Shown here in pieces: positions 33,075 through 57,190 of a DNA stretch of 64,000 bases. Positions within the stretch are counted from its first letter, which is position 1. Every line of letters starts with the position of its first letter. The notes below the pieces were generated by a model. That model ran no database searches. It was not told where the DNA came from and saw nothing but the letters and a program-made list of their open reading frames with translations. Both the position numbers and the translations under genes were made by a program. This stretch comes from Patescibacteria group bacterium (GTDB lineage: Bacteria > Patescibacteriota > Microgenomatia > UBA1400 > PJMF01). The stretch is taken from positions 384,410 to 448,409 of the forward strand of contig JBMORP010000006.1 in assembly GCA_049322655.1 (NCBI GenBank), read 5' to 3'.

Positions 33075-33458
33075 TTAAAATTGCTGCTGCTCCAACCAAT
33101 TTTCCAAAATAATCGCTGCCGCAAAATGATCGATCGGCCCAGAACGAACTTTATGTTTGATTCCCTGATTTTGAAGTCTCTGCTCAACTTCGCGAGAACT
33201 CAATGTCTCGTCTGCAAACTCAACTGGAATTTCTGTCTTAGCTTTAAGCTCCCTCACAAATTCTTCTGTTTTGAGTGCCATCTCGTTTTCTGACAAACCT
33301 ACAATAATTTTTTGGGTTTCTTCTTGCTCAATAATCTTTAACAACTCTTCAAAAAGATTATCTTCATTAGCTAAAACTACTAATGGCACAGCCAAAGTTC
33401 CTCTAGAAACAGCCACACCTACTCTTTTAGTACCAAAATCAATTGCTAGATATGACAT
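33075..33458 (-). CDS. ruvX: Holliday junction resolvase-like protein RuvX/YqgF
   Basis: MSYLAIDFGTKRVGVAVS is an RNase H-fold N-terminus. I trimmed the start to the ATG that overlaps the sortase stop (TAATG). Confidence 0.85.
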   Translation of the reverse strand: MSYLAIDFGTKRVGVAVSRGTLAVPLVVLANEDNLFEELLKIIEQEETQKIIVGLSENEMALKTEEFVRELKAKTEIPVEFADETLSSREVEQRLQNQGIKHKVRSGPIDHFAAAIILENWLEQQQF

Positions 33459-34489
33459 TATTTGTCCTTTACTAGTTGTGCTGTAATTACTCCTCGTCTC
33501 AAATAAGTCCCCTCTGGAGTACAAGTTACCAGCTTTAATTGTCTAGTGTCATAACGCTGAGATAAAATATAAGTATCTGTAGGCTTAACTTCGGTTTTGC
33601 TTACCACTACATACGTATACTTAACTCCTTCTATAGTGACATAAATTTTGTCACCTTTTTCTAAAGTCATAATGTAACTAAAAATCGAGGTGTAACGCTT
33701 GGGATTAACTTCTTTTGGATTATAAAATTGCCGTAATACTGAATGGCCAAAAATCACTGGTGCACCAGCCTGACCTGGCAAGGCTGTACCAGGATACTGA
33801 ATCAAGCTTTTATTAAGGTCACTCCCACCTACGGCCACTAGCGCGTTAGCAACATTTACTTTGGGAATATCTAAAATATAAGAAGTTGGTTGGTTAGCTT
33901 CGCTTTCTTGAACAAACTCAGGTAAATTTTCTCCTTCAAACCAATTATTTAAGTTAGTGTAATCCAAGACAGAATCTAAAATTACTGGCTCATCATTATC
34001 TACTGCCACCCCAAAATCTTCTGCAACTAACCCCTGTGAGTCAGCTAAAGTAATTGGTGTTGAGTCTAAAATTTGATCAGGAGGAACAGGAGCTTTTAAG
34101 TTAATGGTGCTTCTGGAAAGATCATCAACATAGTAAGCCAAAATTGGATAAGTAGCACTACCAACCAAACTAATTCCTACCAACAACAAAACTGTCGGTA
34201 AAATTGCTGCCCCCATCCTAATTATTTTGGGAATTTTTTTCCTAAAGTTTTTCTTTTCGTACTCAACTTCTTTAGTCTCTTTCTTTTCAGCAACGGTTAA
34301 TCTTTTTGCTAATTTTTCAATTTTTTTTTCGATTTTAGCTAAAGAAACACCTTCTTTAATCGCTTCACGATAAACCTTAACCAAGTCCTGACGTTGGTTG
34401 TTAGATAGCGAAGAAGCGTGTTTACTCACTAGTTTTTTCCTGAATATTAATATTAATTCTATGATCTGCTTTAGGAACAGTAGAAACAA
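33458..34489 (-). CDS. Sortase family transpeptidase (long cytoplasmic N-terminus, TM, catalytic domain)
   Basis: VIFGHSV supplies the catalytic His, LKLVTCTP the TLxTC Cys, and LRRGV the Arg. The true start is probably downstream of the track start, which overlaps the upstream gene by 68 nt. Confidence 0.8.
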   Translation of the reverse strand: MFLLFLKQIIELILIFRKKLVSKHASSLSNNQRQDLVKVYREAIKEGVSLAKIEKKIEKLAKRLTVAEKKETKEVEYEKKNFRKKIPKIIRMGAAILPTVLLLVGISLVGSATYPILAYYVDDLSRSTINLKAPVPPDQILDSTPITLADSQGLVAEDFGVAVDNDEPVILDSVLDYTNLNNWFEGENLPEFVQESEANQPTSYILDIPKVNVANALVAVGGSDLNKSLIQYPGTALPGQAGAPVIFGHSVLRQFYNPKEVNPKRYTSIFSYIMTLEKGDKIYVTIEGVKYTYVVVSKTEVKPTDTYILSQRYDTRQLKLVTCTPEGTYLRRGVITAQLVKDK

Positions 34490-36701
34490 ACATCTTTGCT
34501 AAAGAAGGTTTAACCGAATAACTAGCTGCCCTAATTTCTGGTCTTTCAGTTGCTTTACCACTAACCGCTTCTAGAGGCAAACCTCGTAAAGCAGAAATTA
34601 GGTTATTTGGATCAAATTTTGGGAGAGCCCTAGCACTGACATTTGCTTCCAAGATTATCTGTGAACTGCTGGTAGCCTCTTCTCTGGGTGCCGTTAGGAT
34701 CTCTGGGTCATCATCAGTAAACTCATATCCAGCCGGTAAATCAGCTTTCAAAATCTCTACAGCCAATGGTTTAATATCCTCAGAAGAATACCGCACTGCT
34801 TCAAACTCCATCGTTAACTCTAAAGCCAGTTGGTCAGCTTCTTCGCCTAACTCTCCTCCATAATCAGCTTCAATCACTACCTGTTTGCCAGAAAGAACAT
34901 AATAAACACCATCTCCAGATTTATTAGCATAATCTTCCTGAGCTTTTTTAAATAACTCTTTCTTTAAATCATTTAGCACCAAAGTCTTATCTTCTTGAGA
35001 AATTACTCTTACTTCTCTACTAGAACCACCAGTAAAAGACTCCTTAACCAAGGCAGAATAAGTTCCTTGGTCATAATTAGCTACAGTTAACTCTCTCTCC
35101 ACAGCCAAGTTACTTTCAGCACCAATTTTAGCAGCAGTTACTTGAGTATCAAGTTTGCCGTAATCCTTAGTTTCACTTGTCCCTGATTGGGTCACTTCAG
35201 CTGAAGCAACCGTAACTTCTTCATCCAAAGTAAAGTTTAGAGAACCAGAAGAAAAAACCGTTCCAGCAGTAAAAGTTTTTGGCGAAGTAGTTTTATTTAA
35301 AATCGTAATTTTGCCTTTGGCTTTTTCACCAACCAATTTAACTCCGGTAGTATCAGTTACTTTAGTCCCGTTATACTCTTCTACTTCCAACTCACCCCTT
35401 AAAGTTAAGTTTTCAACATTAGAAGTAGCCACCGTAGTATCAACCTTTAACTCAACTTCTTTGGCTATCACTCTTTCTGCTAATTCTACCGAAACTTCCA
35501 CTTTATAAGTAAAAACCAGACCACCAACTAATAAGGCAATTGAGGCCAAAAAACCACTCACCGCCCCTCCCAAAATTATCTTTTTATGAGGATGGTGATG
35601 ATACCAATGCAACAGTTTGTTCATTGGGCCAGACTTTCTATTAGTAAATTTTGTTGCCGTTTGGTTATTAGTTGAAACAAGTGGTTTTTTAACTAAATGA
35701 TTATCTCTTTCTTTTGGCAGCTCTTCTTGAGAAATTGGAATCCCAAAACTAGTTGCTTCTGCCTTTTGTTCAGAGGAACCAACTGAGGTAAAATTATCGC
35801 CAGCTAAATCAGTGTCAACATCAGAAAAACCAAAATCAACTGAGTCTGATGAGTCGACTTTCCCTTTTTCTAAAATTGATTCATCAACACCGTCAAGCTT
35901 TAAACCTCTGCTTTCAGCTACAGCCAAACCTCCTTGTTTAATCACTATCTCCAAAACTCGGTCAGCCATGATTTTTTCAATCAAAGGACTCTGTACAAAG
36001 GGGTGGTTATCTGCCCAATCATAATTAATGATTTTAGTTCTGATGTCTTGAAGGTCTAGATCAGTTAACACTAATGAAGCCAAAACCATTTTGGCTGGTA
36101 AGTAACTACCATCATCGGTTTTATCTTTATCAAATCTAGCTAGTCCCTCGACAATATCAGCTACCACATCATCAGATCGCCCCACCGAAATCTGCTGAGC
36201 TACTTTGCCTTTTTTCAACAAAATCAAAGATAAAGCAGCTTCCTGAATATAAATCAAGATTTGAGAAACAGTTTTTTCTCTAAAAAAAATATCTTGAATA
36301 ATCGCATCAGTCAGAACTACAAAGCCAACTGGTTTTAAAGATAAATTTTCTGTCAGTTTTTTGATAAAAGGACGTTTTTCTTTAACTAAACCATTATCAT
36401 TAACCCATTTGGGATCAAAACCAAACACCACTTCACTAACAGCTTCAGACTCCTTACCTAACTCTTTCAAAGCATCATCAGTGGCAATAATTGCCTCATC
36501 ATCATTGGTAAAAGTATAAAAAGCTGATTGCTGTTTAATCACCACTTGATTACCATCAACTTGCCAAAAAGCAGCTCTAACTCCATTTTCTGAAAAAACT
36601 AAACCTAAAAAAGCGTCTACAACCACTTCAGTCGCTGATGACTTTGATTTTTTGCTAATAAAGGGCAGATTTAATGACATAAATTTTTTTGAATACCACA
36701 A
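34422..36701 (-). CDS. Large bitopic membrane protein (roughly 750 aa): N-terminal cytoplasmic domain, single TM, C-terminal extracellular Thr/Val-rich domain
   Basis: One strong hydrophobic segment (KKIILGGAVSGFLASIALLVGGLVF) lies mid-protein. The N-terminal segment VVVDAFLGLVFSENGVRAAFWQVDGNQVVI resembles the first beta-hairpin of actin-fold (FtsA/PilM-like) proteins, but I did not find the glycine-rich phosphate motifs. The start is TTG at 36701 or ATG at 36680. Confidence 0.5.
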   Translation of the reverse strand: MWYSKKFMSLNLPFISKKSKSSATEVVVDAFLGLVFSENGVRAAFWQVDGNQVVIKQQSAFYTFTNDDEAIIATDDALKELGKESEAVSEVVFGFDPKWVNDNGLVKEKRPFIKKLTENLSLKPVGFVVLTDAIIQDIFFREKTVSQILIYIQEAALSLILLKKGKVAQQISVGRSDDVVADIVEGLARFDKDKTDDGSYLPAKMVLASLVLTDLDLQDIRTKIINYDWADNHPFVQSPLIEKIMADRVLEIVIKQGGLAVAESRGLKLDGVDESILEKGKVDSSDSVDFGFSDVDTDLAGDNFTSVGSSEQKAEATSFGIPISQEELPKERDNHLVKKPLVSTNNQTATKFTNRKSGPMNKLLHWYHHHPHKKIILGGAVSGFLASIALLVGGLVFTYKVEVSVELAERVIAKEVELKVDTTVATSNVENLTLRGELEVEEYNGTKVTDTTGVKLVGEKAKGKITILNKTTSPKTFTAGTVFSSGSLNFTLDEEVTVASAEVTQSGTSETKDYGKLDTQVTAAKIGAESNLAVERELTVANYDQGTYSALVKESFTGGSSREVRVISQEDKTLVLNDLKKELFKKAQEDYANKSGDGVYYVLSGKQVVIEADYGGELGEEADQLALELTMEFEAVRYSSEDIKPLAVEILKADLPAGYEFTDDDPEILTAPREEATSSSQIILEANVSARALPKFDPNNLISALRGLPLEAVSGKATERPEIRAASYSVKPSLAKMFVSTVPKADHRININIQEKTSE

Positions 36702-40607: not shown

Positions 40608-40681
40608 GGCCAATTAGCTCAGTTGGTTAGAGCGCACGATTCACATTCGTGAGGTCACTGGTTCGAGTCCAGTATTGGCCA
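40608..40681 (+). tRNA. tRNA-Val (anticodon CAC)
   Basis: I folded the cloverleaf by hand. Acceptor stem GGCCAAT/ATTGGCC. D-arm GCTC-AGTTGGTTA-GAGC. Anticodon stem CACGA/TCGTG with loop TTCACAT (U33, anticodon CAC, A37). T-arm ACTGG-TTCGAGT-CCAGT. Discriminator A. No encoded CCA. Confidence 0.85.
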
Positions 40682-41361
40682 CAATTAAGTCACAAATTTT
40701 TTTTATTATTAACTTTGTGCCCTTGCTACCAAACCTCTTCAAACTGCTTTTTCCTCAGGCTTGTGTGATTTGCCAAAAAGAGAACTCTTTATTTTGTCCA
40801 GCCTGTCAAAACCAAATTGATTTTCTTTATTTTTCTCCTCAGCTAGAATCTCTTACCTATTATCAAACTAATCTTCAAGCCGTAGGATTTTATGTTGATC
40901 CACTAGCCAGTGTAATTAAAAAATATAAATATCAGGGCATTTATGAGTTAGCTCCAACTCTAGCTCAGTTACTCTACAAGCATCTTAAGTTTTCTGCTCA
41001 ACTTGACTACATCACTTATATCCCTTTGCATCCTAAAAAACAAAGACTCAGAGGCTTTAATCAGACCGAACTAATTGCCAAAGAATTAAGTTTATTAATT
41101 AATAAACCAGTCATTAATTTGTTTCATAGAAAATTTCACACTCAAAGTTTAGCTTCAACCAAAAATCAACAAGTTAGAGCAGAAGTTACCCAAAATGTTT
41201 TTAAGTTACAATATCAAGATTTGTCTTTTCTAAAAAGTAAACAACTATTAATTATCGATGACGTGGTCACCAGTGGGAATACTTTTGCTAGTTGTTTAAA
41301 ACTTTTAGAACCTTTGAAAATCAATAAAATTCAACTGATGACTTTAGCTCATGAGGGGTGA
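40675..41361 (+). CDS. comFC: ComF family protein (ComFC-type, zinc ribbon plus phosphoribosyltransferase fold)
   Basis: CVICQKENSLFCPACQ is a double Cys pair. The C-terminal PRTase motif LLIIDDVVTSGNT is present. The ATG at 40675 overlaps the last 7 nt of tRNA-Val, so the real start may be GTG 40717 or TTG 40723. Confidence 0.7.
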   Translation: MATIKSQIFFIINFVPLLPNLFKLLFPQACVICQKENSLFCPACQNQIDFLYFSPQLESLTYYQTNLQAVGFYVDPLASVIKKYKYQGIYELAPTLAQLLYKHLKFSAQLDYITYIPLHPKKQRLRGFNQTELIAKELSLLINKPVINLFHRKFHTQSLASTKNQQVRAEVTQNVFKLQYQDLSFLKSKQLLIIDDVVTSGNTFASCLKLLEPLKINKIQLMTLAHEG

Positions 41362-42129
41362 ATCAGTCAGTTTAAATGTTTGAATTGATAAAAATCCTTG
41401 AGCAAAAAGACCATAAGCGTCTGGTTTCTGTCTAACCTCTTGCCGAAGCAAATTATGAATCATCTCGGCTGTAGGAATTTTTTGAACAATAAATTGATAA
41501 AGTAAATAATAACCATCAGAATCATTAATTAAAAATGGTTCGGTGTCATTTTCCAAATACAACCTAAACTCCAACCTTTTATCTATACCAATGCCTAACA
41601 TGTCTAGCCCTGGATTCATGTTTTCAGAAAAATTAGTCACAACTTCAGTCATCGTCAAAGCTGGATAATCTGCTTCAATTCTGATATCGCCCATAGTGAT
41701 CCCTTGCTTATCGGCCACCCCAAACACCACATCCCAACTAGCTAAAAAAGGTTGGTTGTATCTTGAAAAAATCTCCTGGTGAACTTTTCTCAAATCTTGA
41801 ATTTCTCCATTCCTGCTGGGTTTCAAAAAATGTTGACCATTGGCTGCGAAAGCAACATCAGAAGCATAAAAAGCCAAATTTTTTTCTTGTTTTTCTGGTT
41901 TTAAATGTTCCAAAACTCTTCTGAGTTTGAATAAAACTGCTTCAAAAGGATTCTCACTAGCCGGTTCTGGCTGAAACTCAACTTGATCAGATGGTTTTTC
42001 CGGATCAATAAAATCAATTCTTTCTTCAGATAAACCAAGTAACGCCATAGCCAAAGGTGCTAGTTCCTTGTGGCTAGTAGCAAAAATTAAAGCTTCATAT
42101 TCTTGGGGGAAGATTTGTGGTTCAGACAT
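41344..42129 (-). CDS. Hypothetical protein (261 aa)
   Basis: Long uninterrupted ORF with no motif I recognise. It is divergent from ssrA. Confidence 0.45.
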   Translation of the reverse strand: MSEPQIFPQEYEALIFATSHKELAPLAMALLGLSEERIDFIDPEKPSDQVEFQPEPASENPFEAVLFKLRRVLEHLKPEKQEKNLAFYASDVAFAANGQHFLKPSRNGEIQDLRKVHQEIFSRYNQPFLASWDVVFGVADKQGITMGDIRIEADYPALTMTEVVTNFSENMNPGLDMLGIGIDKRLEFRLYLENDTEPFLINDSDGYYLLYQFIVQKIPTAEMIHNLLRQEVRQKPDAYGLFAQGFLSIQTFKLTDSPLMS

Positions 42130-42406: not shown

Positions 42407-42817
42407 GGGGATGTAAAGCATCGACGTAACCGCTCTTTACCAATTGCAGACCATCTTTGACCAAGAAAGATGTAAAACAGGGTCAAAAACACAACTGCCA
42501 ATTCATTGCGCAGCAAAGTTGCTAATTTCGTAAATGAAGCCGTTACCGGTTTCAAATCCGCTTTTGCAACTCCAGCTCAGCTTTACGCTTAACTGGTATT
42601 CACAAGAGGGCTCTCATTGACGGAACCTTGTGGGTAACAACCTAGTCGATGTGCAGAAAGATATAATTACACGCTATTTTTCGAAGCAATTTGTGTAGAT
42701 TTCTTAAGGAAGGTCTGAAAGTTCACCTCTTAGGAAATATCAAAGACTTTCTAAGTCTGTAGAAGTTGGCAAAACGTGAGTTCACGGACGGGGGTTCATT
42801 GCCCCCCATCTCCACCA
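42407..42817 (+). ncRNA. ssrA: Transfer-messenger RNA (tmRNA, SsrA), one-piece
   Basis: The 5-prime end GGGGATGTAAAGCATCGACG pairs with the 3-prime CATCTCC-ACCA to give a 7-bp acceptor stem. The 3-prime region GGACGGGGGTTCATTGCCCCCCATCTCCACCA is the canonical tRNA-like T-arm plus CCA. Length is about 411 nt. A candidate tag reading frame ends at TAA 42590..42592 with ...ATPAQLYA. The resume codon is uncertain. Confidence 0.85.
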
Positions 42818-47684: not shown

Positions 47685-47714
47685 AAAAGGGAGCCGGTCG
47701 GCTCCCTTTTTTTA
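47685..47714. terminator. Intrinsic terminator ending the 50966-to-47740 operon
   Basis: AAAAGGGAGCC ggtc GGCTCCC TTTTTTT is a perfect 7-bp GC-rich stem. On the minus strand it is followed by CUUUUAUGUU. It sits only about 20 nt upstream of the udg ATG. Confidence 0.6.
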
Positions 47715-47739
47715 GGTTTTCTTTTTTTAAAAAGAGGAT

Positions 47740-48051
47740 TTACTCAGACAAATCTTGAGCAAGCTTAACATTATTATATGTAGTCTTAGCTGCAGTTTCT
47801 ATATAGTTGTCTGCTAAATCAGTTAAATCGTCAGCAGCCTTATCCAAAGTATCTGCCATTTCACCATAGGCATAAGCAGAAACTTTTTCAACATCACCCA
47901 TTTTGGCTAACAACTGATCCACTTTACTAATATCTTCAGCTGACATTTGCTCTGGAATTGATGCTAATTCTTGGACAACTGCTTGATAGGTTTCTTCATC
48001 CAAACCTTGATTCTTAAGCTCTTCTAAAAGTTGTGTTTTTGTTGGTCCCAT
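47740..48051 (-). CDS. Hypothetical acidic helical protein (103 aa)
   Basis: Uninterrupted ORF rich in D, E and A, with no known motif. Confidence 0.45.
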   Translation of the reverse strand: MGPTKTQLLEELKNQGLDEETYQAVVQELASIPEQMSAEDISKVDQLLAKMGDVEKVSAYAYGEMADTLDKAADDLTDLADNYIETAAKTTYNNVKLAQDLSE

Positions 48052-48084
48052 TATATTGTTCTCCTTTTTTGATTAATAATTATT

Positions 48085-48747
48085 TTATTTGGCAAAATTC
48101 TTTAACCAACCTCTGACACCACCAAGAGATTGAGCATTTTGAGCTGCTTGTTGTTGTTTGGCTCTTTTCTCCAAGGCAGCCTGTTTGATTCTGTCCGCTG
48201 CAGTAACAACTTGCTCACCATCACTCTCTTGGCCTTCTTTAACTATTTGATTAGCTGCTTCTAAAAGAGACTTTACTCCTTCTGCGGCGGCCTTAAGAGC
48301 CGCTAATTTTACTTCTTCAACTTTAGCCTCAGCTCTAGCTGGTAAACTATCAATAAAAGCTGACAACTGATCCATTTTTTCTCCAGCCTTATTGGTTACA
48401 TCATAAGCTCCTTGAATCAAGTCAGCTTTAGCATCAGCTATTCCAACTTCAGCCCTAGTTCGAAGAGCATCCGCCCCATCAACAATCTTACCTGGCCAAG
48501 AAGCAACTTCTCCTGCTCCAGATTTGACTGTATCCCAAGCTTTTGCCCCAACTTCCTTAACCTTTTGCCAACGGGCAGCCCAAGTTTCTCTACTTTCCTG
48601 TCTCTTAGCATCTCTTTCAGCTTGACGTTGCTTGCCAGCATCTCTTTTATCAAAAGAAGTTTCTTTAGCCTTTCTTGCACTTTCTGAAGAGTATGTCTTA
48701 AGTACATCCCCCCTTAAAAATGGTTGTTGTTGTGGTTGTTCTCCCAT
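48085..48747 (-). CDS. Hypothetical protein with amphipathic-helix repeats (220 aa, Ala/Lys/Glu-rich)
   Basis: Repeated A-K-A-x-x-x-V-K segments are apolipoprotein-, phasin- or LEA-like. Local GC is higher because of Ala and Gly codons. Confidence 0.45.
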   Translation of the reverse strand: MGEQPQQQPFLRGDVLKTYSSESARKAKETSFDKRDAGKQRQAERDAKRQESRETWAARWQKVKEVGAKAWDTVKSGAGEVASWPGKIVDGADALRTRAEVGIADAKADLIQGAYDVTNKAGEKMDQLSAFIDSLPARAEAKVEEVKLAALKAAAEGVKSLLEAANQIVKEGQESDGEQVVTAADRIKQAALEKRAKQQQAAQNAQSLGGVRGWLKNFAK

Positions 48748-48778
48748 ATTTTCCTTTGCTTTTTTAATTACTTTGCTA

Positions 48779-49255
48779 CTAACTATTTAGTTTTTCTTTA
48801 TACCTATTCAACAAATCTAATGCAAAAGCTATGCCACTGCGATTACTAACTTTATTAAAGGTAGCAGGTGTTTTAACTGGTTTCAATGAGTTCAAAGCTT
48901 CAATATAAAAGTCAACCTGATCATACTTTGTCACTGGCGCCCTATTTTCAAATAAATCTTTTAAGCTAACATTGTTGATAGTTTTTCCCTCATAACTTTT
49001 GTGACTTTTTGAAAAATCACTCAGTAATTCCAATAGCTCATCTGCATCAGCTGTCTCTACTTTTCGATTATCTGCAAAAGAATCCAATAGTACTTCCAAC
49101 TCTACCAAAGGGTTAATATTAGAACTTGCTTGAGTTGTAACTCCAAAATTATGGCTCAATTTTTGGGCCACCTGTTTTTCAACTTCAACATTAATTAATT
49201 CCTTAATTTGCTTGGCAAATTGATCAAAAACTTGTTGAAATAATTGGTCATTCAT
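48779..49255 (-). CDS. Hypothetical protein (158 aa)
   Basis: Uninterrupted ORF in the same operon, with no recognisable domain. Confidence 0.4.
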   Translation of the reverse strand: MNDQLFQQVFDQFAKQIKELINVEVEKQVAQKLSHNFGVTTQASSNINPLVELEVLLDSFADNRKVETADADELLELLSDFSKSHKSYEGKTINNVSLKDLFENRAPVTKYDQVDFYIEALNSLKPVKTPATFNKVSNRSGIAFALDLLNRYKEKLNS

Positions 49256-49297
49256 ATTTATTCATTTTCAATTTATCACCTACTAAATAACTCGCTC

Positions 49298-50368
49298 CTA
49301 ATACCTAGGCATAAATATCTTAGCATTTTCTTTAGTAATAATCACACTAGCAAAACCACGCTCAACAATAATTCTAACTGCTTTACGAACAGCTCCCTGC
49401 AAAGTTCTTTGTAAAGTACGAATACCCATATCATAGCCCAAAGGACGAGTAATCATCTGCCAGACATCTTCACGAATCTCAAATTGTTCAGCACGAAGAC
49501 CAGCATCTTTAAGTAGTTTAGGCAAAATATATTTTTTAGCGATTTGAATTTTTTCGTGATCAGTATAAGAAGGCATGGTAATCTTTTCCATACGATCCAT
49601 CACGGCCGTTGCAATTTTAGTAGTGTTGTTAGCTGTGGCTAAGAAAATGGCATGACTTAAATTAACCGGATAATCAACATAAGTATCAGTAAAAGCATGA
49701 TTTTGCGCAGGATCTAGTAACTCCACCAACACCCCCATCAAATCCATATTAGCCTCTTCTGCCCCACGATCAATTTCGTCAAGTAAAATAACTGGGTTTC
49801 TCACTCCCACCTCACAAATCCCTTTAATCACTCTGCCTGGCTCAGAACCAAGTAACAACCGAGAATTTCCCCGTAACTCTTTAGCTGAACCCATTCCACC
49901 AAATGGAATACGTACCAACTTTCTACCCAAAGCTTCAGAAAGTGAATAAGCAAAAGTGGTTTTACCAGTACCCACCAAACCAACTAATAACAAAATTGGT
50001 GCTTTAAAATCATCATCTGGAGATTGAGTTTGGCGCAAATTTAAAACAGAAATGTACTCCAAAAAACGATCTTTAACTTCCTGCATACCATAATGGTGCT
50101 TATCAAAAACTTCTTTGGCTTTCTGGATATTAGTCGTATCTTGAGTTTCTTCGGTCCATGGAATCTTCAATACCCAATTAACATACCTCGAGACTTTTTC
50201 GTATTTTTCGTCATAACTACCCAATTCAATACTTCGCTCCAAAGCAATAATCTCTTTTTCTACTTTGGAACGCATTTCGTCAGGTAAAGTCGATTGATTA
50301 GTCTTATCTCTAAGATCTTGAATCTCTTGCTGGAGAACTTGCTTATAATCAGTCATGGGCAGTACCAC
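49298..50368 (-). CDS. Stand-alone Lon-type AAA+ ATPase module (no Lon N-domain, no S16 protease domain)
   Basis: Several blocks align to the LonA ATPase domain as I recall it. [13 protein letters not shown] aligns to [31 protein letters not shown] aligns to [64 protein letters not shown] aligns to [57 protein letters not shown] aligns to [49 protein letters not shown] and [28 protein letters not shown] also align. The ORF ends at 356 aa, before any protease domain. Confidence 0.75.
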   Translation of the reverse strand: [356 protein letters not shown]

Positions 50369-50372
50369 CTAT

Positions 50373-50966
50373 TTAATCTTCTATTTGTTGGGTTGGTTCC
50401 TCAACAGTTATTTCCTTTGGCTCTTGAATAGCAGGTAATAATTGTTGAGAAACTAAGCCCAAACCCATAAGAAACAAGCCACCAACTACCATGAGGAAAG
50501 TGTTTTCAATCCCACCGGCAACCGGTAGGGTTGTTTGTGTGCTTTCGGTCGCTCCACCGATGCCATACGTAGTGGTAGTAGTCGTAGTGGTGGTAGAAGA
50601 AGTGCTTTCAGATGTGCCACTATCAACCAAAATAACATAGTTTAATGTTTCCAAATTAGAAGCTACTCCCAACATATGGGCCCCATCTGCCAAAGCAGTC
50701 AAAGGGGTATAAGACCAATTTCCACTGGCATCAGCCAACACTGCTACAGTGAGGTCATCAATCGAAATATCAACAGTCGCTTCTGGTGAAGCTACACCAA
50801 TAATGGTGGGAGTGGTATCAGTGGTGTTGACATTAACTGATGAACCGACAGTAGTTCCACCAACACTAGTCACACTCAAAGTAGCTGCCACAACCAAACC
50901 CTTTGCCACAAACAAAAGAGTGACACTAATCAAAAAAACAACCAATAAACGATTAAATATATTCAT
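50373..50966 (-). CDS. Secreted Thr-rich protein with C-terminal LPVAG-plus-TM sorting-signal-like tail
   Basis: N-terminal signal or anchor (LLVVFLISVTLLFVA). A run of 11 consecutive Thr within a longer Ser/Thr-rich stretch. The C-terminus TLPVAGGIENTFLMVVGGLFLMGLGLV is followed by a charged tail. Confidence 0.5.
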   Translation of the reverse strand: MNIFNRLLVVFLISVTLLFVAKGLVVAATLSVTSVGGTTVGSSVNVNTTDTTPTIIGVASPEATVDISIDDLTVAVLADASGNWSYTPLTALADGAHMLGVASNLETLNYVILVDSGTSESTSSTTTTTTTTTYGIGGATESTQTTLPVAGGIENTFLMVVGGLFLMGLGLVSQQLLPAIQEPKEITVEEPTQQIED

Positions 50967-55567: not shown

Positions 55568-57190
55568 ATGTCTAATTCAATCATTAAATTTTTTAAAAAA
55601 CTAACCAAAGCAATTAACTTAAGCAAAATTTTACTTATTTCAATTGTCATTTTGGGGTTATTCTTGAGGTGGCAGAAAATTGATCAACTAGTCTGGGAAC
55701 AAGAAGGCAATGATGAAAGCCGAGACATGTTAGTGGCTGAACACATTGTTAACTACCAAGAAGAAGTCTTGAGGGGACCACTTGCTGCTGGTGGGTTAGA
55801 TTGGTTACTCAATTCACCACTCTACTTCTATCTAATTGCTGCTATTTGGAGTATTACTAAAGACCCCTTAGCCTTAATGAAAGTGTGGGCTACTCTGATG
55901 AGCCTAATTCCATTAATTGGTTACTATATCGGTAAAGAAATAAAAAACAACCAACTCGGTTTAATCATTGCCCTGATGCTCGCTATCAACATTGAGCTAA
56001 TTCATGAAAGTAAACAACTTCTCCAACCCTTTCTACTACCTTTCTTCTCAACCCTTTTTTTATGGAGTTTACTAAAAATTGAACAGCAAATAAATTATTT
56101 TTATCTGTCTGCAGCAATCTTTTTTTTATTGGTTCAACTCCATTTCCACTATGGAGTTTTGTTGATTTTACCAGCTGGCTTAATTCTGCTTGGTAACTAT
56201 TGGCTAAAATTACTTAAAAGAGACTGCTCATTAATCAACTTAGCAGTTCCTTTTTTAACCGCCAGTTCAATCGGTGTGTTATGGTTGTTACTCACCTTCA
56301 GAGAAACGGTTGGTGATCAGTTCGGTTTCTTTTTACTAAACTACAGTGAAAAAAGTGACTCGATCTTCACCAAACTTCAAGAAATCGGCATGGGCATTGT
56401 ACAAATGACTTTCTCTTGGGAAGTGCTTTTTTTAGCTGTTCCTACGTTGATTACACTCCTGACTGCGGCCTTTTTTATTAAAGATAAACAAATCGATAAA
56501 ACAATTAAAACCATTTCTTTACTAGCTGGTTCTGTTCTATTGATGATATTTTCCAATGGAGCTATTGCTAATACCTACTTACTAGCAACCTTGCCTTATT
56601 TTATTATTTTGATTTCGATTGGTCTTTATAAATTAATTCAGTTAAATTCCTTACTAGGCTTAATTTTTTTGATCATCATACCAATCAAGATTTATGGGCT
56701 CAATCAATATTTAACTAGGAGCCTGATCCCTGAAACATCTTTTTATAAACAAAAAGAAATAGTCGCACAACAAATCTATGATGACTATTTTCAAACAAAT
56801 CAATATAAACAACCCAACTTTGCTCTTGCTTCAATTAACTTTGAACTACCTTTTGATGGTTGGGGAACAACAGCTTTCTGGTTCCATTTAGAAAAAATGA
56901 CCAATAAAAAACTAACAACCCTTGTTAATTATGGGGTAAATGTTAAACCACTAGTCAATAAAGCTGACAAAATCTACTTAGTTTGTGAGCTAAGAAATAG
57001 TATTAAAAAAAATGAGACAAAAGAAAAATGTCTTAATTTATTTATCAGAGCTAGAAACTACTTAGAACCAGGTCATCCTACTCTAATTTTCGACTCCCCT
57101 AACTACGCAGTTTGGCGCTTTGAGATTATTGAGGGAACATATCAAAAAAACTACAACTCTGTTTATCCTAAGGCTTTGAGATTTTATTAG
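55568..57190 (+). CDS. GT-C-fold glycosyltransferase-like integral membrane protein (ArnT/PMT/family 39-like), tentative
   Basis: 540 aa with roughly 11 to 13 TM helices. An acidic first periplasmic loop (WEQEGNDESRD) is followed by a large C-terminal soluble domain. The architecture is typical of GT-C enzymes, but the assignment is weak. Confidence 0.4.
   Translation: MSNSIIKFFKKLTKAINLSKILLISIVILGLFLRWQKIDQLVWEQEGNDESRDMLVAEHIVNYQEEVLRGPLAAGGLDWLLNSPLYFYLIAAIWSITKDPLALMKVWATLMSLIPLIGYYIGKEIKNNQLGLIIALMLAINIELIHESKQLLQPFLLPFFSTLFLWSLLKIEQQINYFYLSAAIFFLLVQLHFHYGVLLILPAGLILLGNYWLKLLKRDCSLINLAVPFLTASSIGVLWLLLTFRETVGDQFGFFLLNYSEKSDSIFTKLQEIGMGIVQMTFSWEVLFLAVPTLITLLTAAFFIKDKQIDKTIKTISLLAGSVLLMIFSNGAIANTYLLATLPYFIILISIGLYKLIQLNSLLGLIFLIIIPIKIYGLNQYLTRSLIPETSFYKQKEIVAQQIYDDYFQTNQYKQPNFALASINFELPFDGWGTTAFWFHLEKMTNKKLTTLVNYGVNVKPLVNKADKIYLVCELRNSIKKNETKEKCLNLFIRARNYLEPGHPTLIFDSPNYAVWRFEIIEGTYQKNYNSVYPKALRFY

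Follow-up and report, generated by a model that had tools for sequence, protein, structure and literature searches.

The stretch of DNA analysed here (the window) comprises 64,000 nucleotides, positions 384,410 to 448,409 of contig JBMORP010000006.1 from a Patescibacteria group bacterium. It has a low G+C content (~38%), carries ribosomal and other housekeeping genes, and has nearly all its genes on the minus strand. Five open reading frames (ORFs), all on the minus strand and separated by intergenic gaps of 16, 42, 31 and 33 nt, lie between positions 47740 and 50966 (Table 1). In the direction of transcription they code for a surface protein, an AAA+ ATPase of the type found in the protease LonA, and three small proteins without family match. 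The ATPase is a LonA AAA+ module that lacks both the N-terminal and the S16 protease domains of LonA. The first-pass annotation of this sequence, made without database searches, had read the five genes as one module built around the Lon-type ATPase and closed by a strong terminator. The five ORFs were found where it had placed them, as was the terminator, a G+C-rich hairpin followed by a T-run. The co-orientation of the genes is uninformative because nearly every gene of the window is on the minus strand. The ATPase had been given 356 amino acids: the ORF is real and its open frame reaches a GTG codon at position 50368, but the start used in the family is the ATG at 50356, which yields a protein of 352 amino acids.

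Table 1. Features of the region, with their positions in the window (aa, amino acids; AF2, AlphaFold2; HMM, hidden Markov model; pI, isoelectric point; TM, transmembrane; L001, locus of a sister strain).
Feature	Position	Strand	Size and basis
Predicted secreted surface protein	50373..50966	-	197 aa; Big_13, LPVAG, TM helix; endings of homologues
LonA-type AAA+ ATPase without protease or N domain	49298..50356	-	352 aa; HMM, PDB sequence matches, motifs, AF2 and Foldseek
Strain-variable cargo slot, from the Lon-AAA stop codon to the terminator upstream of UDG	47712..49297	.	Comparison with L001
Acidic helical ORFan, cassette gene 1	48779..49255	-	158 aa; without family match; alignment of copies
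Basic all-helical ORFan, cassette gene 2	48085..48747	-	220 aa, pI 9.3; 5 clusters in collection; AF2
Acidic helical ORFan, cassette gene 3	47740..48051	-	103 aa, pI 4.1; best-conserved of the trio; 9 metagenome loci
G+C-rich palindromic hairpin, intrinsic-terminator-like	47685..47714	.	GGGAGCC-GACC-GGCTCCC, A and T runs on flanks

The NCBIfam model TIGR00763 ('lon') matches the ATPase ORF with an E-value of 1.1e-90, over model positions 252-568 of 795. The match scores 305 bits for a curated cut-off of 608, and the match to NF008053 231 bits for a cut-off of 891. The next unrelated NCBIfam family is ClpA (E 2.7e-6). An identity of the MoxR, RuvB or ClpX type, named in the first-pass annotation as a possible objection, is ruled out by the HMM scores, which are far higher for LonA than for the Clp, MoxR and RuvB models. 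Pfam detects the AAA domain (PF00004, E 2.8e-15), while Lon_lid (PF22667) reaches 26.3 bits, just under its gathering score of 27; this lid domain is listed for the identical protein P0001 and for most relatives of the ATPase. A phmmer search of the PDB sequences retrieved the LonA proteins of B. subtilis, T. thermophilus, M. taiwanensis, E. coli and mitochondria with E-values from 1e-71 to 1e-55, in alignments that run end to end with the module preceding the protease domain. Entries 3m6a and 7p6u both match at E 1e-70, and B. subtilis LonA (3m6a) is matched over residues 14-353, the GG...AE.RG block included. The AF2 model of the monomer has a predicted local distance difference test (pLDDT) score of 72.5, and its top 50 Foldseek hits in the PDB are all LonA structures with a TM-score of ~0.7. 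These matches bear out the stand-alone Lon-type AAA+ module of the first-pass annotation.

The domains that flank this module in LonA are both missing. The N-terminal substrate-binding domain is absent, as the match begins at position 252 of TIGR00763 and Pfam gives no match to LON_substr_bdg (PF02190). There is no Pfam match to Lon_C (PF05362) either, and the ORF ends right after the lid. No sequence resembling Lon_C was found by tblastn with three Lon_C domains as queries in the window or in the flanks of 80 related loci (80 x ~13 kb, ~1 Mb). A frameshifted or split lon gene was ruled out: the ATPase gene is followed by a 42-nt spacer and an unrelated ORF, no frame of the window encodes Lon_C, and in most relatives the UDG gene lies directly downstream of the ATPase gene. 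The protease domain is therefore absent, as had been supposed from the sequence, and not split off downstream. Neither Pfam nor NCBIfam holds a curated model specific for a protease-less Lon family.

A search of a collection of 5.8 billion proteins returned 7,430 relatives of the ATPase at E <= 1e-10, and the collection holds thousands of relatives of about 352 amino acids. Among the best 120 of the 7,430, which were inspected for length and domains, almost all have 351-354 amino acids, none has Lon_C, and the start and stop are conserved. The gene context was surveyed in one genome per species, which returned 80 loci whose ATPase is 69-99% identical to that of the window. These loci are of the Microgenomates/Pacebacteria type, and the nearest kin of the window are metagenome-assembled Patescibacteria of that type. 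Their gene order is the same in all 80 cases: RpiB, Rpe, LOG-like, PfkB, a surface protein that may be missing, the ATPase (LonAAA), UDG, RNase J and FtsK. Median identity to the window proteins is 73% for LonAAA, 62% for FtsK, 60% for UDG, 56% for RNase J and 48% for PfkB, so that LonAAA is the most conserved gene of the neighbourhood. The ATPase gene is a conserved core gene of these Patescibacteria. Its relatives are named 'AAA family ATPase' by NCBI and 'ATP-dependent Lon protease' by JGI, and no account of a protease-less Lon family in Patescibacteria was met in a full-text search of the literature. Of the full-length LonA representatives that bear organism names, the nearest come from Firmicutes and not from Patescibacteria. 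The taxonomic labels of these records look unreliable: 'uncultured Pseudomonadales bacterium' is the name given to many Patescibacteria-type contigs, Vitreimonas, Limisphaerales or Methylococcaceae to single ones, and CP011212.1, which has the Microgenomates synteny, is labelled 'candidate division TM6'.

The motifs expected of an ATPase are all present in the window protein: Walker A (GLVGTGKTT), Walker B (LLDEIDR), sensor-1 (TANN), arginine finger (DRME) and sensor-2 (GIRTLQR). In an alignment of 35 sequences of the family, residues G126-T133, D193-E194, N243/N244, R255 and R313 are invariant. Such invariance of the nucleotide-binding and hydrolysis motifs and of the inter-subunit arginine finger points to an active, oligomeric ATPase. 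The pore loops differ from those of LonA, where the tyrosine of pore loop 1 grips and pulls the substrate. This loop reads RGHRRTY(I/V)GAMPG in LonA, and the tyrosine of HRRTY is invariant in the 40 full-length LonA representatives that were compared with 59 sequences of the window ATPase family. The family has xSRL[L/I/V] instead. The residue at the tyrosine position is leucine in the window ATPase and, across the family, leucine in 31 sequences, isoleucine in 13, valine in nine, and phenylalanine and tyrosine in two each. Pore loop 2 is rewritten as well, from RGDP in LonA to ANxDIMG. Loss of the protease and N-terminal domains thus coincides with loss of the pore-loop tyrosine, while the ATPase engine is preserved. 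Such a combination speaks for an ATPase that does not degrade its substrate and probably does not thread it processively either. The protein ends in a conserved tail, NAKIFMPRY in the window and NAKIFMPKY in Microgenomates (consensus IF[M/L]P[K/R][Y/F]). Its pI of ~6 is no more basic than that of LonA modules and is uninformative on DNA binding.

An exhaustive search of representative proteins revealed other short relatives without Lon_C, at 38-55% identity, some of which carry long disordered Pro/Gln/Ser-rich N-terminal extensions. One branch of them, a family from Dojkabacteria, was characterised from 120 proteins, mostly of ~375-450 amino acids, and from the gene context of three 17-kb loci (L083-L085). 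All 120 proteins lack Lon_C and have Walker A, sensor 1 and sensor 2; 119 have the arginine finger and 116 have Walker B. Where LonA has its tyrosine, these proteins carry Glu, Asn, Gln or Ser, with no aromatic residue at that position in any recovered pore loop, and the conserved C-terminal tail reads PEDIGVYS. The Dojkabacteria gene lies in the order YidC, L25, LonAAA, small ORF, FtsA/PilM-like; no partner gene is common to these three loci and the 80 Microgenomates loci. In two of the three (L083 and L085) groES-groEL are found within 5-8 kb of the protease-less Lon gene and a gene for a ClpB/ClpC-type ATPase is present, with clpP in one of them, a loose proteostasis neighbourhood not seen in the Microgenomates loci.

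In a crude neighbour-joining distance tree, which has no support values, the protease-less forms group together, apart from LonA and from Lon proteins with several AAA+ modules. It appears from this tree that the protease-less Lon-like ATPases, those of Dojkabacteria included, form a single clade. The multi-module proteins (P0121-P0129 and about 30 more), which are metagenomic, have 900-1700 amino acids and carry two or three Lon-type AAA+ modules in tandem. An S16 Lon_C domain follows in many of them, and all are without the LonA N domain; P0122 comes from a metagenome-assembled genome of Dependentiae. P0126 has two identical pore loops, and it and some of the others might be assembly or gene-calling duplications.

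The 197-amino-acid product of the gene upstream of the ATPase gene features a signal peptide, a Big_13 Ig-like domain (E 1e-7), a Ser/Thr-rich linker, an LPVAG motif, a TM helix and an acidic tail. The Thr-rich surface protein described at first sight is thus found again, with its Thr run inside a Ser/Thr-rich stretch, LPVAG and TM segment, except that the run counts 9 Thr and not 11. Matches to Gram_pos_anchor (E 0.065) and EF0750_LPXTG (E 0.002) both stay below the cut-offs. A homologue is recognisable by tblastn in 32 of the 80 loci, and inspection of the ORFs places an analogous gene immediately ahead of the Lon gene in ~37 of them, whose product ends in LPxTG, LPxSG or LPxAG followed by a TM helix; many of these homologues also carry a short basic (K/R) tail. 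The 197-amino-acid protein is accordingly classed, from its predicted features, as a putative sortase-type LPXTG-like surface protein, whose adjacency to the ATPase is common and not obligatory. Nothing suggests a functional tie between the two. A sortase gene is present in the window 16 kb away from the surface protein gene (33458-34489, minus strand, 343 amino acids). It overlaps by 68 nt an ORF of 759 amino acids (34422-36701, minus strand) without Pfam match, whose product could be a sortase substrate or a pilin-like protein.

The three genes downstream of the ATPase gene are ORFans. Their products gave no significant match in Pfam, NCBIfam, PHROGs or PADLOC, and the 220- and 103-amino-acid proteins have no relatives in the IMG/VR viral contigs; a phage or defence-system origin was rejected on these results. 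The first-pass annotation was right that the three lack recognisable domains and that one of them is small and acidic, whereas 'apolipoprotein/phasin-like' is a mere description, as no such family was matched. The 220-amino-acid protein forms just five clusters at 90% identity among the 5.8 billion proteins, and its AF2 model is all-helical with low confidence (pLDDT 50). Identity among copies is 25-45% for the 158-amino-acid protein (five known copies) and 59-83% for the 103-amino-acid protein.

By tblastn the trio is found in two of the 80 genome loci (L002 and L007). A scan of metagenomes with the 103-amino-acid protein as query recovered nine loci, of which those at 83% identity repeat the arrangement of the window. 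The trio lies in the slot beside the Lon gene in the window, L002, L007, L081, L086 and L088, and its downstream junction to UDG in the same slot is seen in L087 and L093. Those contigs at ~59% identity that have enough flank (L082, L089 and L091) have no UDG gene downstream of the trio or of the 220/103 pair, and the two that reach far enough, L082 and L091, have no Lon gene upstream. In L082 the trio follows a divergent gene fragment of 97 amino acids, which by eye might be the N-terminus of a transposase and for which Pfam and NCBIfam gave no match. In L091 an IS1595 transposase gene (Pfam E 6e-27) adjoins the 220/103 pair in a context of tsaD, Sua5/TsaE-like, YidC-like, SPFH and GroES genes, the adjoining genes lying at L091:127-741 (minus strand) and L091:705-2000; the 158-amino-acid gene is missing there and the N-terminus of the 220-amino-acid homologue is altered. 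The 220-amino-acid gene is split over two frames in L081:6001-6656, L087:5-579 and L088:5317-5969, contigs of one and the same sampling project, and intact in L086, which reflects either pseudogenisation at the population level or sequencing error.

The limits of the slot are defined by the sister strain L001, which belongs to the same or nearly the same species and whose DNA is 97% identical to the window across the Lon gene and 90% identical across UDG. Homology ends exactly at position 49298, the Lon stop codon, and resumes at 47711 inside the terminator. Between these points L001 has 2,415 bp (L001:7072-9486) encoding an unrelated helical protein of 678 amino acids. The hairpin is partly common to both strains and hence belongs to the slot, not to the cassette. 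In most loci the slot is empty, UDG following the Lon stop codon within 6-100 nt. Elsewhere it holds a helical protein of 757 amino acids that is 30% identical to that of L001 (L003:7231-9504), a multi-pass membrane protein of ~265 amino acids (L016, L029 and others), a protein of 379 amino acids without family match (L055) or several small ORFs (L059). Homology of the trio to the 678/757-amino-acid cargo was rejected, with an hhalign probability of about 1%. The trio is a rare, movable and self-contained ORFan cassette, and its place in the strain-variable slot behind the Lon gene is accidental.

Among the few plus-strand features of the window are a tmRNA gene (42407-42817; Rfam 82 bits, no ARAGORN call) and a tRNA-Val(CAC) gene (40608-40682). 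An ORF of 540 amino acids (55568-57190, plus strand) and another of 261 amino acids (41344-42129, minus strand) have no Pfam match at E <= 1e-5.

The region is best explained, with a probability of about 0.6, as three independent things lying side by side and not as one system. A LonA-derived ATPase that lost its N-terminal and S16 domains would have been inherited vertically under strong constraint and become fixed between the PfkB and UDG genes. An LPXTG-type surface protein would often, though not always, take the upstream position, and a rare ORFan cassette would occupy an insertion slot bounded by the Lon stop codon and the terminator. The unfoldase or remodelling system of five genes proposed at first, in which the ATPase acts on the helical and acidic proteins or on the Thr-rich surface protein, draws on the co-orientation and tight spacing of the genes, on the single terminator after the last of them and on the loci listed above that repeat the trio beside the Lon gene. 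It is very improbable. The trio does not travel with the ATPase, which leaves the module unsupported: the trio is missing from 78 of the 80 ATPase loci, is replaced by unrelated cargo in the closely related L001, and in L082, L089 and L091 occurs as trio or pair with no ATPase gene on the contig, next to IS1595 in the last. The neighbours are therefore not conserved with the ATPase, an outcome that the first annotation had named as counting against its module. Furthermore, the 220-amino-acid gene is apparently frameshifted in some populations, and an exported, presumably sortase-anchored protein, which ~32-37 of the 80 loci encode, would be beyond the reach of a cytoplasmic ATPase once secreted. 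That the ATPase gene itself is a decaying lon remnant, a pseudogene or an assembly truncation, has next to no probability. Its ORF does span just the middle 40% of a LonA, but length, start and stop are kept in the best 120 of 7,430 relatives, the catalytic motifs are invariant, and the median identity across the class is above that of FtsK or RNase J.

What the ATPase does is a separate question. The favoured, still tentative answer, put at somewhat less than even odds, is an ATP-hydrolysing ring that would serve as a non-degradative chaperone or remodeller with a weak or non-processive grip on its substrates. It is unlikely that degradation is still the output, with the ATPase docking, perhaps through its aromatic tail, on a peptidase encoded elsewhere, such as an orphan S16 domain, a second Lon or another chambered peptidase. 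ClpX, ClpA and HslU are as a rule stand-alone unfoldases that work with separate peptidases, and the multi-module Lons with two or three AAA+ modules ahead of Lon_C indicate that stacking of Lon AAA+ rings is possible. Each class has a conserved sequence of its own at the extreme C-terminus (NAKIFMPKY in Microgenomates, PEDIGVYS in Dojkabacteria), and ClpP and a Clp ATPase are encoded within 8 kb of the gene in one Dojkabacteria locus. Against this, no S16 domain was found in the window, in the 80 flanks or among the called genes of the three Dojkabacteria loci, and the two classes have no conserved neighbour in common. Feeding a protease requires the pore-loop tyrosine, which has been lost, and each class has its own form of the loop; the conserved tail aligns with the start of the linker that joins lid and protease in LonA and may be a mere remnant. 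Less probable again is re-use of the module as an ATP-dependent DNA- or RNA-binding protein or a regulatory switch. Retention of the ATPase motifs with loss of the aromatic pore loop would suit such a role, the conserved downstream genes of Microgenomates (UDG, RNase J and FtsK) act on nucleic acids, and the LonA AAA+ alpha-subdomain has a PDB entry as a DNA-binding fragment (6n2i, 'DNA-binding ATP-dependent protease La'; compare 1x37 and 4git). This synteny is however not common to Dojkabacteria, the protein is no more basic than LonA modules, and the Pfam scan of the ATPase gave no nucleic-acid-binding domain.

Several points weigh against three independent elements with a non-degradative ATPase. 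Isolated LonA AAA+ modules hexamerise poorly without the protease domain, and assembly into a ring is assumed. The pore loop of the Microgenomates proteins is still hydrophobic and highly conserved (RL[L/I/V]LG), so that some threading is possible. The search for S16 domains spanned the window and the flanks, leaving room for a partner or a full-length Lon elsewhere in the genome. The ATPase function is deduced from motifs alone and the clade from a distance tree without support values. Finally, a spacing of 16-42 nt makes co-transcription of cassette and Lon gene probable in this strain, an incidental regulatory link.

In textbooks Lon exemplifies the AAA+ motor that is fused to its own protease, and experiments with protease-dead Lon mutants have long hinted at a chaperone role independent of degradation. 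The ATPase described here is a real and apparently undescribed variant of this very well-known enzyme; so far nothing points to a new mechanism. It is conceivable, though doubtful, that Microgenomates, Dojkabacteria and perhaps more Patescibacteria have no proteolytic Lon and that this derivative is their sole Lon-type protein, essential, non-degradative and non-threading. If so, it would be the first natural case of a Lon surviving purely as an ATPase. With ~73% identity kept across the 80 sampled reduced genomes, the clade amounts to an experiment of nature on what the Lon motor can do alone. The label 'ATP-dependent Lon protease' used by JGI may lead metabolic reconstructions of Patescibacteria to count a protease that is absent. 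The cassette slot, for its part, illustrates on a small scale how genes turn over between strains in genomes usually deemed static.

The window ATPase shares with LonA (endopeptidase La, MEROPS S16; B. subtilis 3m6a, T. thermophilus 7p6u and E. coli 6u5z) the three-helix bundle, the AAA+ large domain and the Lon-type lid (LonA residues ~250-580), the fold, and the Walker A and B, sensor-1, arginine finger and sensor-2 motifs, with a BLASTP identity of ~36-40% to LonA modules. LonA has in addition the LON substrate-binding domain and the Ser-Lys protease domain, and the window ATPase has neither. The multi-module Lons likewise carry Lon-type AAA+ modules without the LonA N domain, some of them with non-canonical pore loops, but they retain the S16 domain and fall outside the protease-less clade in the distance tree. 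ClpX and HslU (HCLR clade) resemble it as single AAA+ modules encoded without a protease domain; the window ATPase differs from them in its Lon-type sequence, in having no adjacent or conserved peptidase gene and in a pore loop without aromatic residue. The surface protein next to it has the signal peptide, Ig-like domain, Ser/Thr-rich stalk, LPxxG motif and C-terminal TM helix of LPXTG sortase substrates, together with a sortase gene in the window, and departs from them in the LPVAG motif and in a long acidic tail in place of a short basic one. In LonC and other Lon-like proteases the protease was kept and the ATPase function lost. Like these, the window ATPase is a Lon derivative that gave up one of two activities, and it is their mirror image, with intact ATPase motifs and the protease gone.

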